From a bacterium (GTDB lineage Bacteria; Babelota; Babeliae; Babelales; RVW-14), in NCBI GenBank assembly GCA_043822925.1, contig JBDRBF010000006.1:1-24912 (forward strand): a stretch of DNA of 24,912 nucleotides, given 5' to 3'. Positions 11,540 through 21,143 of the stretch are shown here, in pieces. How positions within the stretch are numbered: position 1 is the stretch's first letter; every line of letters begins with the position of its first letter. The notes under the pieces are model-generated. The model searched no databases. It was not told the DNA's origin and worked only from the letters and a program-made list of their open reading frames with translations. Made by a program: the position numbers and the translations under genes.

Positions 11540-11677
11540 CCCCTTCGATGCTTCAACCCGTCTACGCCCAGAGGCTACGACGAGACAGGCAAGCCCCCTG
11601 GCTTCCAGCCGTCGCTCCTGCGGAGCTATGGCGGACAGGTCGCACAAGGCTACGACGGGACTGAATCAGGGAGAGCG
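11540..11677. repeat. Nested palindromic composite: family C shell containing two to three family B units
   Basis: CCCCTTCGA...TCAGGGAGAGCG enclosing CCCGTCTACGCCCAGAGGCTACGACGAGACAGG, TCCAGCCGTCGCTCCTGCGGAGCTATGGCGGACAGG (11604-11639) and TCGCACAAGGCTACGACGGG. Confidence 0.85.
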
Positions 11678-12671: not shown

Positions 12672-12739
12672 TAAGGGACTGGATCCTGAATTCCAGCCGT
12701 CGCCAAGGCTATGGCGGACAGGCGAGTCCAGGATGACAA
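12672..12739. repeat. Family A element with a 31-nt family B unit inserted in its loop
   Basis: TGGATCCTGAAT[TCCAGCCGTCGCCAAGGCTATGGCGGACAGG]CGAGTCCAGGATGACAA; removing 12692-12722 leaves a 29-mer collinear with TGGATCCCAGATCAAGTCTGGGATGACAA. Confidence 0.9.
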
Positions 12740-12932
12740 TTTATACAAAGACCAGAGTAACAAATACGGCGACCACAACATAATAGATTTTTTCTTCAAA
12801 ACGTACAAATTTCTGTGTTTATATTTTCTATTTATAATAAATCATTGAAAAAGGGCTTAGCGAATTGATAATATGAAAATGTACAGGGGGATAAATCTCA
12901 AGAAATACAAAAAACCGTGGTAGGAGAACATC

Positions 12933-14151: not shown

Positions 14152-14184
14152 TTCTAAGCCCTATAAAAGAGAAAGAAAAAGATT

Positions 14185-16567: not shown

Positions 16568-18013
16568 TTAGATTTTTTCCCAAGAGCCGGCAAAATTTTG
16601 TTTAACCAAGCCATCAAGCTGCAAACAAAACAACTTATCTTGTAACTCGGCAAAACTTAAACCAGATTTTATCGTTAATTCGTCCAACGTATGCATACTA
16701 TCAAAATGAGCTAAAAACGGGTCGGAATAAGGCTTGGATCCCAGATCAAGTCTGGGATGACAAGAATTTGATACTTGTGCAGGCGCAGAGACAGAAACTC
16801 GAACCTGGTTATAAACTTTTACTGGCTCGTTATTTTTTTGAGAGATAATAGACTCCTGAGAGCCGTAATCTTGGTGCGCAGCAAGAGCCGTACCAGATAC
16901 ACTCGCAGCGCCAGCCGTACAATCATACTCACCAAACTCACCCAAAATATCAGAGACATCTTTAACCAGTTTAGCACCATGATCAAGCAATTTATGGCAT
17001 CCATCACTTAAATCATTAAATATAGACCCTGGGACTGCAAACACCTGTTTGCCCTGTTCAAGCGCAAATTCAGCCGTAATTAACGCGCCACTTTTTTGCG
17101 CAGCCTGAACAATAACACAGCCCTGAGATAAACCAGCTATAATGCGATTGCGCGCAGGAAAAGTCGTTTTATCTGGGGGCATACGCAATGGGAAAGATGA
17201 AACAAGCGTACCGCCACTGGCTACTATTTTTTTGAAAAATTTTTTATTTTGTTCCGGATACGGCTTCAAAAGACCTGAGCCCAGCACAATTATTGTTTTT
17301 CCCCCAGCATCGTGTGTTGCTTTATGGGCCATACTGTCAACGCCTAACGCCCCACCACTTACTATTTCCCAGCCGTTATTAACTAACCCTGGAACCAAAT
17401 GGTCTATTACTTGCGCTGCGTACTTATCAGCTTTACGTGCACCAACAAACGCGATACGTTTGGGGGTATATGGCTTGGATCCTGGATCCCCTTCGACCCC
17501 CTTCGACAAGCTTACACCTACGCCAAGGCTACGGTGCACAGGCAGGGTGAGCGCCTCAGGGTGAGCACTGGTCCCGGCAGTAACGGCGCCCAAAGAGCCG
17601 CCCTTACTGTACAACAATAACGGTGGCTGATTAATATTTCTGAGTAGTGCTGGGTATTCTTGATCAAGAATTGTATCAATGCGTATCGTATATTTTTCGA
17701 TAAGCTCTAATTCTTCTTCAAGCAATTTTTTATCTGTAAGCCCCTGGTGCAAAATAGTAGCTATTTTTTCTGAAAGACCAATTTTGTTTCTAAAATCAGC
17801 AACAGAAAAAGTATAAATTTGTTCAAACGATAACGTATCAAGATACTCGATTTTATCCCGAAAAATATCACAGGTTTGCGATTGGCTGGATCCTGACCGA
17901 TCACGCAAAAGATCGTTAACATGTAACAGGTATGCAATTAACTTGCATACCGTTGCCGGACCTATACCTGATATTAATGATAAGTGTAATAACGTTTGTC
18001 TATTTTGTTTCAT
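16568..18013 (-). CDS. dprA: DNA-processing protein DprA carrying in-frame palindrome-derived insertions
   Basis: YPALLRNINQPP, IAFVGAR, IVSGGALGVDSMAH, FPARNRIIAGLS, SGALITAEFALEQG, VFAVPG; C-terminal winged helix. Confidence 0.95.
   Translation of the reverse strand: MKQNRQTLLHLSLISGIGPATVCKLIAYLLHVNDLLRDRSGSSQSQTCDIFRDKIEYLDTLSFEQIYTFSVADFRNKIGLSEKIATILHQGLTDKKLLEEELELIEKYTIRIDTILDQEYPALLRNINQPPLLLYSKGGSLGAVTAGTSAHPEALTLPVHRSLGVGVSLSKGVEGDPGSKPYTPKRIAFVGARKADKYAAQVIDHLVPGLVNNGWEIVSGGALGVDSMAHKATHDAGGKTIIVLGSGLLKPYPEQNKKFFKKIVASGGTLVSSFPLRMPPDKTTFPARNRIIAGLSQGCVIVQAAQKSGALITAEFALEQGKQVFAVPGSIFNDLSDGCHKLLDHGAKLVKDVSDILGEFGEYDCTAGAASVSGTALAAHQDYGSQESIISQKNNEPVKVYNQVRVSVSAPAQVSNSCHPRLDLGSKPYSDPFLAHFDSMHTLDELTIKSGLSFAELQDKLFCLQLDGLVKQNFAGSWEKI
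16734..16763 (-). repeat. Family A 30-mer inside the dprA coding sequence
   Basis: Exact reverse complement of 4995-5024; read as CHPRLDLGS(KPY). Confidence 0.95.
17472..17577. repeat. Four-level nested palindrome A[C[C[B]]] inside dprA
   Basis: GGCTTGGATCCTGGAT[CCCCTTCGAC[CCCCTTCGACAAGCT[TACACCTACGCCAAGGCTACGGTGCACAGG]CAGGGTGAGCGC]CTCAGGGTGAGCA]CTGGTCCCGG. Confidence 0.88.
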
Positions 18014-18021
18014 ATATTTTG

Positions 18022-18067
18022 CCTGCCCTTCGTAGCTACAAGCCGTAAGGCAAAGAGCGTAGTAGGG
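18022..18067 (-). repeat. Family B-like element with an enlarged loop
   Basis: CCTGCCCTTCGTAGCT...AGCGTAGTAGGG; begins with CCTG, the reverse complement of the CAGG end of B units. Confidence 0.7.
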
Positions 18068-18079
18068 TCAAAAACCAGA

Positions 18080-18129
18080 TGCTTCGACAAGCTCAGCATG
18101 AGCGCTCTCCCTAAGCTTGTCGAAGGGTA
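18080..18129. repeat. Family C inverted doublet immediately downstream of gyrA
   Basis: TGCTTCGACAAGCTCAGCATGAGCGCTCTCCCTAAGCTTGTCGAAGGGTA; arms CTTCGACAAGCT/AGCTTGTCGAAG. Confidence 0.88.
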
Positions 18130-18134
18130 TTCCC

Positions 18135-20927
18135 TTATAAATCTGTATCGTCGTCAGCACCTGCATCAAACATACTGCGCTGTTTTATTTCTTTGGCTGC
18201 AACTTCAAAATCATCCTGTAATGCTGTACGATTTGAACTTGCTGAACGCTTCTGACTATTATCAAGACTGTCTTCAGAATTTTCTCCTGAATCTTCTTGC
18301 AAGTCAGCATCAAAATCGTCTTGAACATCTTGATCGTCCTGATCATCTAAACTATCTTGAGCATCAAGAGCTTCTAGATTACCCAAAAACTGCTCACCAT
18401 CAGCTTCTTGCCCGAACAATTTATCACCAGCGACCATTTTTTTGTCGCCAGGTGTCACGTCTTCATCATCATCTTCTTCTTGTTCAAACGTAAGCACCGC
18501 CGAAAGTGTTTGCCCTGCATCAAGTCTGACCAGTCTTACACCTTTTGCTTGTCTGCCCATTGTACGTACTTCTTGCGGTGAAAGACGAATAATCTTACCA
18601 TTTGTATCAATCAATAAAATCTCAGAATTTTCAGTTACACGCACAAGCGCAATAACTTCACCATTACGGCCACCGGTTGGAATAGTTCTAACACCAAGCC
18701 CACCACGGTGAGCAACTCTGAAATCAGAAATTTTAACACGTTTACCATAACCCTGTGATGTACCAAACAAGAGCGTGTCTTGTTCGCTAACCACTTCAAG
18801 CCCAACAACAAAGTCATCTTTTTTCAATTTAATACCACGCACACCAGCGGCTTGACGGCCCATTGACCGGATTTCATCTTCTTTAAAATGAATACCTTGG
18901 CCCATGCTAGTTGCAATAACAATTGAATTAGTACCTGAGCTAATCGCACAAAAAGCAAGCTCATCACCTTCATGCAAGTTAACCGCTCTAATACCGGTAC
19001 TACGCACTTTAGCAAATGCCATAGCGTCTGTTTTTTTAATTGTACCCTGACGCGTTACCATGACTAAGAATTTATTTTCCATGCCACGAGTACACAAGAG
19101 TCTAACAACTTTTTCACCTTCAGAGAGCTGAAGCAAGTTAACAATAGCACGGCCTTTTGATGTTCGAGAACCTTCTTGAACTTGGAATACTTGTAAGCTA
19201 AATACACGGCCAGTATTTGTGAAGAACAATAATTCATCGTGATTTTTAGCAACAAAAGCATCTTGCATTAAGTCGTCAGAATCATCAAGATCTGCCATAC
19301 CCTTCTTGCCTTTGCCACCACGTCTTTGTACTACGTATGTTTCAAGAGGCACGCGCTTGATATACCCCTTGCGTGTTAACGTAACAACCATATCATCATC
19401 AGGAATAAGATCAGCTTCACTCAAAATATCGACCGCGTCTTCTATCTTAGATTTACGCGCATCACCATATGTTTTTTTGACTAACTCCAACTCTTCAACA
19501 ATAACTCTACGCAATTCGTTTTCATCACGTAAAATAAGCTCAAGTTTTGCAATTAATATACGTAATTCTGAAATTTCGCCATAAATTTTTTCTTGTTCTA
19601 ACCCGGTCAAACGTTGCAATTTCATATCAAGAATAGCTTTTGCCTGCTCAAGAGAAAATTTGCACTTTTCTTGCAAAACTTCACATGCTTCTTGCGCGGA
19701 CTTTGACGCTTTAATAAGCAAAACAACATTATCGATATCGTTTAAAGCAAGAATAAAACCATCTAACAAATGTTCTCGATACTTGCTTTTAGCAAGATCA
19801 AACTCTGTACGCCGAGTGACAATCTCTTTACGATGCAACAAAAAGTGATCAAGCACTTCACGCAACGTAAAAAGCGCCGGACGATTTTGAAAGAGCGCAA
19901 GTAAAATAATAGACATCGAAGACTGAAGCGCCGTATGTTTATACAGCAAATTCAACACAACTTGTGGGTTCTCTCCACGTCTCAATTCAATAACAAGACG
20001 AATCCCTCCACGCGCAGATTCATCACGAATATTAGAAATTCCATCAATAATTTTATCTTTAACAAGATCAGCAATTTTTGTAATAAGATCTGATTTGTTC
20101 ACCTGAAATGGAAGCTCTGATACGACCAAAACCGGAGAACCTTTTTTCTCTTCTTCAACATCAATAACGCCACGTATGACAACGCGTCCATGACCGGTGC
20201 GATACGCTTTAACAATACCAGAACGACCACAAATTATACCGCCCGTTGGAAAATCAGGTGCTGGAATAATATCGAAAATTTCTTCATCTGTAATAGCGGG
20301 ATTCTTTAAAATAGCCAAACACGCATCAACAACTTCTGTTAAATTATGCGGCGGAACTGAAGTCGCCATACCAACAGCAATACCGGTCGAACCATTTACG
20401 AGCAAATGTGGAATTTTGGCAGGAAGCAATGTTGGCTCAGTACGAGATTCATCAAAGTTTGGAACAAAATGAACCGTATTTTTTTCTATATCATTAAGCA
20501 TTTCACGGGCAATCTTGGCCATACGCACTTCTGTGTATCGCATTGCAGCTGCGTTATCACCATCGATAGAACCCCAGTTACCCTGTCCATCAAGCAACGG
20601 GTATCTTTTTGAAAACTCTTGAACCAAGCCGACCATTGTTTGATAAATTGCAGCATCACCATGCGGATGATAATTACCAATTACTTCTCCAACAACAGTA
20701 GCTGATTTACGATAAGCTTTATCGTTATAATATCCAAGTTTATGCATCGCGAACAAAATACGGCGATGAACAGGCTTCAACCCATCCCGCACGTCAGGGA
20801 GAGCTCGACTGACAATTACTGACATTGCATAGTCAAGAAATGACGTCTTTAACTCTTTTTCTATTGAAAGTAACGCAACACCAGATTTTGGTTTATTATC
20901 AACTGTCGTATCGTTATCTGCAGCCAT
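18135..20927 (-). CDS. gyrA: DNA gyrase subunit A
   Basis: RALPDVRDGLKPVHRR, YHPHGD, AAAMRYTE, GyrA-box QRRGGKG, beta-pinwheel repeats. Start set to ATG 20927 (GGGGGA RBS). Confidence 0.98.
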   Translation of the reverse strand: MAADNDTTVDNKPKSGVALLSIEKELKTSFLDYAMSVIVSRALPDVRDGLKPVHRRILFAMHKLGYYNDKAYRKSATVVGEVIGNYHPHGDAAIYQTMVGLVQEFSKRYPLLDGQGNWGSIDGDNAAAMRYTEVRMAKIAREMLNDIEKNTVHFVPNFDESRTEPTLLPAKIPHLLVNGSTGIAVGMATSVPPHNLTEVVDACLAILKNPAITDEEIFDIIPAPDFPTGGIICGRSGIVKAYRTGHGRVVIRGVIDVEEEKKGSPVLVVSELPFQVNKSDLITKIADLVKDKIIDGISNIRDESARGGIRLVIELRRGENPQVVLNLLYKHTALQSSMSIILLALFQNRPALFTLREVLDHFLLHRKEIVTRRTEFDLAKSKYREHLLDGFILALNDIDNVVLLIKASKSAQEACEVLQEKCKFSLEQAKAILDMKLQRLTGLEQEKIYGEISELRILIAKLELILRDENELRRVIVEELELVKKTYGDARKSKIEDAVDILSEADLIPDDDMVVTLTRKGYIKRVPLETYVVQRRGGKGKKGMADLDDSDDLMQDAFVAKNHDELLFFTNTGRVFSLQVFQVQEGSRTSKGRAIVNLLQLSEGEKVVRLLCTRGMENKFLVMVTRQGTIKKTDAMAFAKVRSTGIRAVNLHEGDELAFCAISSGTNSIVIATSMGQGIHFKEDEIRSMGRQAAGVRGIKLKKDDFVVGLEVVSEQDTLLFGTSQGYGKRVKISDFRVAHRGGLGVRTIPTGGRNGEVIALVRVTENSEILLIDTNGKIIRLSPQEVRTMGRQAKGVRLVRLDAGQTLSAVLTFEQEEDDDEDVTPGDKKMVAGDKLFGQEADGEQFLGNLEALDAQDSLDDQDDQDVQDDFDADLQEDSGENSEDSLDNSQKRSASSNRTALQDDFEVAAKEIKQRSMFDAGADDDTDL

Positions 20928-20995
20928 CCAAGTCCCCCTTCCTAAAGAAAAAAGCAAAAATTACAACTCTGATTTTTTTAATTTTCTATCTTTTA

Positions 20996-21025
20996 TTGTC
21001 ATCCCAGACTTGATCTGGGATCCAA
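20996..21025 (+). repeat. Family A 30-mer upstream of gyrA
   Basis: Identical to 4995-5024. Confidence 0.95.
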
Positions 21026-21143
21026 ATATTTAAGTCACCAAGATACCCTGATTTATGCCTTAAAGCAAGAATTGCCTCTCTTTTCAGAGTAAAAAAAACA
21101 ATCGAAAAGCACCTAGGATCCTCACTAAATTCTCTTCTCCCCA

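Follow-up and report, generated by a model that had tools for sequence, protein, structure and literature searches.

The window that we analysed is a complete 24.9-kb contig (C6) of a 1.52-Mb assembly with 86 contigs and 37% G+C. On its minus strand, at 16568-18013, it encodes DprA in an open reading frame (ORF) of 481 codons, and this ORF is intact, as a sequence-only reading of the window had claimed. The protein matches Pfam's DNA_processg_A family (PF02481) with E = 3e-66 and 223 bits, against a cut-off of 29.6, and it retains all of the invariant columns of DprA. (The names that the sources give to its relatives are candidate division TM6, Dependentiae, and Babeliales.) The match to PF02481 is split in two by an insert; its best stretch, residues 184-351, aligns to profile positions 44-211. 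We will argue that the insert lengthens a loop of DprA and that this long loop is very probably a tolerated in-frame insertion of short hairpin repeats of the REP type (REP is short for repetitive extragenic palindrome).

We measured the loop as the residues between G138 of LLYSKG and R186 of KRIAFVGAR. It has 47 residues, in accord with the original description of an abnormally long loop of about 50 amino acids between LLYSKG and RIAFVGAR. From a search of 5.8 billion proteins we took the 120 best DprA relatives; 118 of these are from outside this assembly, and in all 118 the loop has just 6-12 residues (exactly 8 in 104 of them). Because most relatives have 8 residues where this protein has 47, we estimate that the insert is about 39 codons, or about 117 nt, at about 17471-17587 on the minus strand (AVTAGTSAHPEALTLPVHRSLGVGVSLSKGVEGDPGSKP); these boundaries are approximate. 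The sequence-only reading had placed the insert at 17472-17577, and it was indeed found there, although it is slightly wider. We also searched 41 related genomes, of which 38 had matches. We took DprA from 19 related genomes, and all 19 genes have a short linker at the insert site, which appears as a gap in the alignment of orthologues. A sister copy of dprA on another contig of the same assembly (C57) has 23 residues in the loop, with a shorter and different insert. The insert in C6 is 63% G+C, versus 41% for the rest of dprA, and is open in just one of the three sense frames (two of six frames overall). Judging from these sequence comparisons, the long loop is an insertion.

Within the insert, we recognized units from three families of hairpin repeats (A, B, and C), which appear to interrupt one another. 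(We write A[B] for a B unit within an A unit; all of the coordinates in this paragraph are on the minus strand.) The innermost unit is B, a 30-nt guest hairpin (17513-17542) that is a direct repeat with 12701-12723 and 11618-11640 and belongs to the B family from nhmmer. B is flanked by the two parts of the inner C module, which were identified by a genome-wide scan for C: the left part (17543-17553) ends in CCCTG, which is the insertion point, and the right part (AGCTTGTCGAAGGGG, 17498-17512) has 20 blastn-short matches. Around these are the outer C hairpin unit (GCTCACCCTGAGG, 17554-17566), of the 45-nt class of the C scan, and a second C tail (GTCGAAGGG, 17489-17497), which would be the right part of the outer C. 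The two-hairpin layout is also seen on contig C74, and the doubled tail on C74, C25, and C31. Outermost are an A hairpin's right arm and tail (GATCCAGGATCCAAGCCATAT, 17468-17488), which are read as DPGSKPY and have 11-13 blastn-short matches to A copies, and, at 17567-17587, what seems to be a vestigial and strongly diverged left arm of the TGTC-tagged A hairpin. This arm matches the consensus for the left part of A weakly (9 of 17 positions in a by-eye alignment) and has no counterpart in the 19 relatives. The A copy in the loop is not, then, a complete CGTC unit: its right arm and tail are clear and its tag and left arm are degenerate. Peptides that would span the junctions include ...TSAHPEALTLPVHR... 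and ...DPGSKPYTPK....

The insert had originally been parsed as A[C[C[B]]]. B within C and the right arm of A hold up; the left arm of A is vestigial, and the layer of C within C can equally be read as a recurrent module with two hairpins and two tails. Similarly, the B and inner C layers were each thought to preserve the reading frame. B does so, at exactly 30 nt; whether the inner C measures 27 nt is a matter of how the insert is parsed.

The same gene contains a second, independent, in-frame insertion. This is a complete A hairpin of 42 nt (SCHPRLDLGSKPY, 16726-16767, minus strand) that is 95-97% complementary to intergenic A copies at 4989-5025 and 20993-21025. It is missing from the dprA of C57 as a clean 42-nt gap, and it encodes part of a linker (residues 370-429) that is modelled with low confidence. 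The right arm of A in the loop is read in the same frame as this C-terminal copy.

All of these units belong to families that are dispersed across the genome. When we searched the whole assembly with blastn-short, the sequences that flank the insert had 0 copies, and most of the insert had 10-20 copies. Iterated searches with nhmmer found 57 matches to A, 19 to B, 73 to C, and 20 to another family, D. The A unit has a TGTC tag, an 8-bp stem that starts with AT (its arms are ATCCCAGA and TCTGGGAT), a 5-nt loop (CTTGA), and a CCA tail; A copies begin with TTGTCAT or CGTCAT and most of them end with ...GGGATCCAAG. The C unit combines a small hairpin and the tail TTGTCGAAGG. The guest hairpins (B, D, E, and F) are 30-33 nt. 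Their modal lengths are multiples of three (30 nt for B and F, 33 nt for D, and 33 nt for E, or 38 nt minus a 5-nt loop), so the commonest guests keep the reading frame on their own; as these families are related, this may be due to chance. Each layer was also expected to have relatives in the intergenic DNA of the window, and we found these for A (4989-5025, on the plus strand, from the repeat scan and nhmmer; and 20993-21025), for B (12701-12723 and 11618-11640), and for C (18079-18128 and 2968-3007). Furthermore, the 57-nt C[B] block recurs at C31:7721-7777 (96% identity, E = 1e-21) and at C83:2273-2329 (95% identity), and in part on C20 and C30, and a 58-nt identical copy of C[B], with other flanks, is present in a contig from a sediment metagenome. 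Beyond this assembly, patterns for A were found in 12 of 35 genomes of the bacterial family and patterns for C in 20 of 35, with no matches for reversed control patterns.

If the units are nested by insertion, then some sites should be empty and others filled at the same point. In our genome-wide scan for C, which paired each left part with the nearest right part, there were 28 empty modules, with a single A at the junction, versus 12 modules that were filled at that point. The fillings add 30 nt in five cases (four B, including the one in dprA, and one F), 33 nt in six cases (five D and one B-like), and 35 nt in one case. (Five further copies have a second hairpin in tandem.) In dprA, B adds exactly 30 nt relative to an empty C, at the site of the single A. 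A scan for the left arm of A identified 83 motifs. Of these, 44 have a loop of 5-6 nt (5 nt in 43 of them), one has a gap of 9 nt, 14 hold fillings of 36-99 nt whose point of entry follows (C)TTG or CTCG, and for 24 our pattern found no right arm. The two scans together imply that both hosts are entered at YTG^A (where ^ marks the point of entry).

Sister contigs provide a more direct view of the nesting. C57 is colinear with C6:11698-21410, with 85-88% identity, and, aside from one block of 2.1 kb, nearly all of the indels of at least 26 nt between them are repeat units. Besides the 42-nt A copy near the C-terminus of DprA, these include a 41-nt A copy that is upstream of gyrA (20988-21028, plus strand, intergenic) and a 75-nt intergenic A[B] composite (12678-12752, minus strand), both of which are missing from C57. 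In the spacer between dprA and gyrA, the window has a full C element (18079-18128), a head-to-head dimer that is empty; in C57, a 30-nt guest is present at its CCCT^A point (18113). The indel in the DprA loop itself is 31 + 41 = 72 nt. Lastly, in the sister pair C50/C74, an A hairpin that is empty on C50 has its loop occupied on C74 by a 48-nt C composite with two hairpins. This A[C-C] element has the architecture of the DprA stack minus B. Because these differences are indels between sister contigs, each of the three nesting steps is seen as a separate event at an orthologous site. Our results support site-specific nesting by insertion.

At 14153 in the window, the sister contigs differ in another way: C57:2490-2515 has TTTGTCAT, a 26-nt hairpin, and TCCGGGCC, where C6 has TTTGTCAT and TCTAAGCC. 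Here the hairpin body is the indel and the tag and tail remain, which could reflect an exact excision, or an insertion, at the base of the stem.

The sequence-only reading had proposed successive insertions of different elements into one another. The empty and filled sites and the sister indels bear this out for nesting in general. In dprA itself, the stack may have been built stepwise or may have arrived pre-assembled, given that C[B] travels as a block (it is found in at least four other places in this assembly and in the metagenome copy), and any order of events in dprA would be our reconstruction. After the C57 copy (79% identity), the nearest DprA is just 51% identical, so the order of events cannot be polarised, and because no outgroup carries any insert, a gain in C6 looks the same as a loss in C57.

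The same repeats are found within other genes. Our census was based on 12-mers that occur at least 7 times with at least 50% G+C, and on segments of at least 19 nt; five tandem repeats of proteins were removed. (A first census, with 11-mers that occur at least 6 times, was too permissive: it yielded 2013 segments that were mostly ordinary coding words.) Of 162 repeat segments, 19 lie at least 50 codons inside long ORFs, and ORFs of at least 150 codons span 86% of the DNA. Because so few segments lie deep within ORFs compared to this coverage, and because just one in three sense frames of the DprA insert is open, it is plausible that insertions are filtered for the reading frame. Of 20 candidate ORFs, 17 have a Pfam family at E = 1e-5 or better. 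We placed the elements relative to the Pfam-matched stretches ourselves, from the repeat, ORF, and Pfam scans. In 11 further genes, the element lies inside or between these stretches: an acyl-CoA synthetase gene, gpsA, polA, aspS, acs, cdsA, a Mur ligase gene, eno, fabF, the gene for iPGM, and ftsY. The element is outside of the matched stretch in holB, a heparinase-like gene, a gene for an HhH-GPD glycosylase, mutS, and genes for a DUF885 protein and a PD40 protein.

The sequence-only reading had suggested scanning the proteome for peptides from the insert, and they do recur in other proteins. The peptide (S/R)CHPRLDLGS is in the products of acs and fabF, and SCHPGL... is in AspS and the Mur ligase; just the start of this motif, followed by divergence, is seen in the products of cdsA (SCHPRLA...) and gpsA (RHPRLACPS...). 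The glycosylase and the enolase share an SAHPE/A...VEG peptide. By our reading, 8 of the 12 stretches in ORFs that derive from A share one orientation and frame, out of four that are open (binomial tail 0.003, with copies that are not independent); for three of the stretches, the ORF lacks firm Pfam support at that place. In the heparinase II/III-like protein (ORF C31:6118-8076), the C[B] block at C31:7721-7777 (96% identity) is near the N-terminus and is read in the opposite orientation, as SPFDKLTPTPRLRCTGRVSA.

The stack in dprA is a further case of a known phenomenon, the RPE-like insertion of CGTC-type REPs (RPE is short for Rickettsia palindromic element). According to the available part of PMC10969869, RPEs are repeats that insert in frame into genes that stay functional, and in the part of PMC3733652 that was available, intragenic REPs are described from several phyla. 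As in Rickettsia, we see short hairpin repeats at many sites in the reduced, A+T-rich genome of a host-associated bacterium, and many copies are in frame in unrelated housekeeping genes, with recurrent peptides and with proteins that are apparently functional (going by the same portions of PMC10969869 and PMC3733652). The defining feature of RPEs, a repeated palindromic element that is in frame within intact ORFs, is present here. Two differences from RPEs are the phylum (Dependentiae, by the names of the DprA relatives) and the size of the units, which are 26-42 nt and are stacked into composites, unlike the classic RPE-1 of about 100-150 nt.

Family A can be placed more precisely, at the level of a class. 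As defined in the available text of Di Nocera, De Gregorio and Rocco 2013 (PMC3733652), CGTC REPs have a CGTC (or TGTC or CCTC) tag, a stem of 8-9 bp with A-T at positions 1-2, a loop of 4-5 nt, and a tail that is mostly CCA; the class includes Neisseria's dRS3/NTS as well as RPE-4 and RPE-6 of Rickettsia. A has each of these features, with the TGTC variant of the tag. Its likeness to the RPE families is by this class definition only, with the link being that RPE-4 and RPE-6 are CGTC REPs in that part of PMC3733652. The same text reports REPs in genes, two insertions in one ORF, clusters that encode 43-82 residues, and REPs within other palindromes; five phyla are covered there, and in that text Dependentiae are not among them. 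The C module and the 30-33-nt guests differ from CGTC REPs in that we saw no CGTC or GTAG end. What the dprA case adds is a gene with two insertions, nesting that is three layers deep, and evidence from sister contigs for each nesting step; it also extends in-frame insertions of the REP/RPE type to another lineage with small, A+T-rich genomes. In the literature that we searched, we found no description of these repeats in Dependentiae, although the figures or supplements of PMC3733652 and PMC11893778 may list a related consensus.

A is also similar in layout (YGTCAT, stem, short loop, stem, ATCC) to the NTS/SRM repeats of the Ssn system, as far as these are described in the accessible portion of Chenal et al. 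2025 (PMC11893778), and differs from them in failing the degenerate SRM pattern that is given there. In the signature of the Ssn system, again from that portion of PMC11893778, single-domain GIY-YIG genes are bracketed by inverted repeats, and we found this arrangement as well. Both of the small GIY-YIG genes in the assembly (C2:35334-35555 and C57:5883-6104) are bracketed by inverted A copies, with one A copy at -71/-73 and an inverted copy at +128/+102. The 101-amino-acid GIY-YIG protein matches PF01541, and among NCBIfam models it has only a sub-threshold match to an intron endonuclease; a relationship to SsnA (cd10448) is putative. The gene on C57 is within the 2.1-kb block (C57:4139-6252) that is missing from C6 at 15779. 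This block also contains a duplicate of a neighbouring gene, and it is about 0.9 kb from the dprA of C57.

A second type of enzyme resembles those of the REP/RAYT (REPIN) and IS200/IS605 systems. There are four Y1_Tnp matches in the assembly, and one of these genes (C83:55121-55465) has E-like hairpins on both sides, at C83:54703, 54892, and 55598 (25 of 33 positions), from a search that covered three short regions only. (Just upstream of this locus is the fabF with an in-frame A copy.) Unlike in REP/RAYT systems, we saw no GTAG tag, and the other three Y1 genes have different and unrelated flanking hairpins. IS200/IS605 elements enter a fixed short sequence without evident duplication, as the guests here do. 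BIMEs (bacterial interspersed mosaic elements), which are mosaic repeat clusters, likewise combine short palindromic units of several types; BIME units lie side by side, while the units here interrupt one another at defined points and are translated. We also considered miniature inverted-repeat transposable elements and rejected them, given that the clean indels at 16726, 20988, and 12678 show no clear duplication and that the units are only 26-42 nt. The GIY-YIG proteins and the Y1 (IS200/RAYT-like) proteins are candidates for the enzymes that mobilise the repeats.

We propose that guests insert at a fixed YTG^A point in the loop of A or inside C, and that the loop of A can also take up C composites. 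Successive insertions would then produce Russian-doll stacks, and a stack, once formed, could move as a block. Most insertions in genes would be lost, and the survivors would be those in surface loops or linkers that keep the frame and contain no stop codon. In DprA, translation of the stack would give a loop with about 39 disordered residues and no constraint on their sequence, in a protein that is otherwise under strong purifying selection. With its fixed entry point and its two candidate nucleases, this scheme is open to biochemical testing.

Several observations weigh against this explanation or parts of it. C57 might be either a co-binned sister lineage or a paralogous segment. The inserts of C6 and C57 are not simply precursor and product: after CCCTG, the loop of C57 has the start of an F-type guest and no right arm of A, so deletion or replacement may be involved. 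By reading of the alignment, there is no unambiguous target-site duplication at the clean A indels (16726, 20988, and 12678). For the outermost A layer in the loop, whose left arm is barely recognizable, the main evidence is the right arm and the similar element on C74. Genome-wide, the SRM search pattern had a single match, which is not A, versus 1-4 matches in each of five block shuffles. The term "palindromic" suits the repeat families and not this composite: the DNA fold of the whole insert is -14 kcal/mol (z = +1.6), and 194 of 200 shuffled sequences fold at least as well. (We had considered that the stack might be a single large cruciform and dropped that idea because of this result.) Finally, among public RNA runs, none was listed with 17250-17800.

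The structural context of the insert bears on what its peptide might do. We built a model of DprA with AlphaFold2 from an alignment of 20 rows. The mean predicted local distance difference test (pLDDT) is 80, and two stretches, residues 149-174 and 370-429, have pLDDT below 50 and no secondary structure; the first corresponds to the loop insert and the second to the linker with the C-terminal A copy. With this model as the query, Foldseek's best match was DprA from S. pneumoniae (3uqz; E = 2e-22, TM-score of 0.86-0.88 on the target), and other top structures were 3maj, 5mll, and 4ljr. By the model and Foldseek, then, the protein has the DprA fold, a SAM-like N-domain and a Rossmann-like domain, and the insert lies between the first Rossmann-like strand and the strand that bears the conserved G-x-R. 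In the model, the roughly 39 residues that the insert encodes form a disordered loop. We also compared the dprA of C6 and C57 by the ratio of nonsynonymous to synonymous substitution rates (dN/dS, Nei-Gojobori method). Across the 17 codons of the insert that are shared and alignable, dN/dS is 1.14, so this part evolves neutrally. Given a dN/dS of about 1.1 and pLDDT below 50, the "new peptide" of the sequence-only reading looks like a neutral and disordered passenger and not a gained function.

The alternative is that the inserted DNA or peptide did gain a function, either as a hairpin site for the A-associated GIY-YIG single-strand nuclease, with the repeats coupled to DNA uptake, or as a new interaction loop. 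DprA is a transformation protein, and according to the available text of PMC11893778, the NTS/Ssn pair of Neisseria modulates natural transformation; furthermore, dprA has two separate A-derived insertions, and on C57 a GIY-YIG cassette is nearby. Nevertheless, we consider this improbable: besides the neutral evolution and modelled disorder of the loop, the C57 copy lacks most of the insert and the 118 other relatives lack it altogether, the same repeats are in many unrelated housekeeping genes, and the A hairpin in the loop lacks its left arm.

It is still less probable that dprA is a decaying pseudogene, or is disused, and that the frame is open across the insert by chance. G+C-rich inserts rarely contain stop codons (as noted above, two of six frames of this one are open), and the missing RNA support would fit as well. 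However, the gene outside of the insert is under strong purifying selection on both sides: dN/dS is 0.126 in the N-domain (142 codons), 0.019 in the core (182 codons), and 0.007 in the C-domain (51 codons), with dS of about 0.5-1.1 across these 375 flanking codons. Also, the invariant columns are all kept, the two halves of the gene are in one frame, and both insertions are in frame. We infer that DprA is made and is active with its insert.

We also give little credence to the idea that the insert is an artefact of assembly or binning, such as a repeat-induced mis-join inside dprA. Short repeats do break de Bruijn graphs, and the public contigs all end inside repeats: they overlap inside B and break within repeats, as short-word assemblies would. 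Nonetheless, where an artefact in the reads might have undone the finding, Logan contigs from two studies instead match exactly across both junctions (17277-17536 and 17518-17603 for run X2; 17507-17957 for run X1), with the caveat that the source sample may be among these runs. There is no break in the frame or in the flanking DprA sequence either, and C57 has an insert of its own at this point in dprA. On 16905-17161, runs X2 and X4 also have contigs that are 93% identical to dprA (18-19 differences per approximately 200-260 nt) beside the exact ones, which implies that related alleles or strains coexist in the same groundwater communities. As to binning, approximately 30.6 kb of sequence in the assembly can be aligned with another of its contigs; the identity is mostly 80-89%, with a single short pair at 97%. 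The duplicated set comprises C57, C80, C15/C16, C76, C50/C74, and C58, and both gyrA and dprA are duplicated. This pattern suggests that a few contigs from a sister lineage were co-binned, rather than paralogy, and so the bin would include some sister-lineage sequence.

Removal of the insert after transcription or translation, as for an intron or intein, which would leave a short mature loop, came into question only because a conserved domain is interrupted here, and we all but dismiss it: nothing was found in its favour, no Rfam family scores above its gathering threshold within the window (on 17400-18200 there is just a chance-level match to a miRNA, with E = 0.82), the Pfam scan shows no intein-like domain, and the insert is 117 nt of REP-type repeats whose units are also found in intergenic DNA.

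A tolerated insertion of REP-type repeats in DprA has several implications. With two sister sequences side by side in the same assembly, nesting can be documented with unusual directness, and the insert is a natural experiment on the amount of unstructured sequence that an essential fold will accept in a particular loop. There is also a warning for annotation: long, G+C-rich loops in the proteins of such genomes are repeat-derived, and are neither the scars of pseudogenes nor new domains. More tentatively, and we think that this broader idea is rather doubtful, the genomes of Dependentiae might host a hierarchical, two-enzyme ecosystem of hairpin repeats in which one family lands preferentially in the loop of another (at YTG^A); the C module, which shares an exact 23-mer with eight or more distant phyla, would be a superfamily of REPs that spreads horizontally and is as yet undescribed, and pre-assembled stacks that enter coding DNA as units would continually supply essential proteins with new disordered loops.

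The 23-mer in question is an exact word of the C module (18102-18127 in the window). It is present in at least 122 stretches of species-representative genomes, and the matches listed include Dehalococcoidia/Chloroflexota, many Sphingomonadales, Thermodesulfobacteriota, Binatia, Wallbacteria, Elusimicrobia, Anaeromyxobacter, and Chitinispirillaceae. It is often in an inverted pairing with a CTTCGACAGGCTCAG... partner, and in Dehalococcoidia some of its flanks also carry canonical hairpins of the NTS type. Four 14-mers of the C module were found in no paper of the literature that we searched. Finally, the repeat and k-mer scans also picked up coding tandem repeats that are rich in alanine, lysine, and aspartate (AADKA-type), at 4-299 in the window, at C2:97107-97222, and at C20:1263-1517; these are unrelated to the hairpin families.

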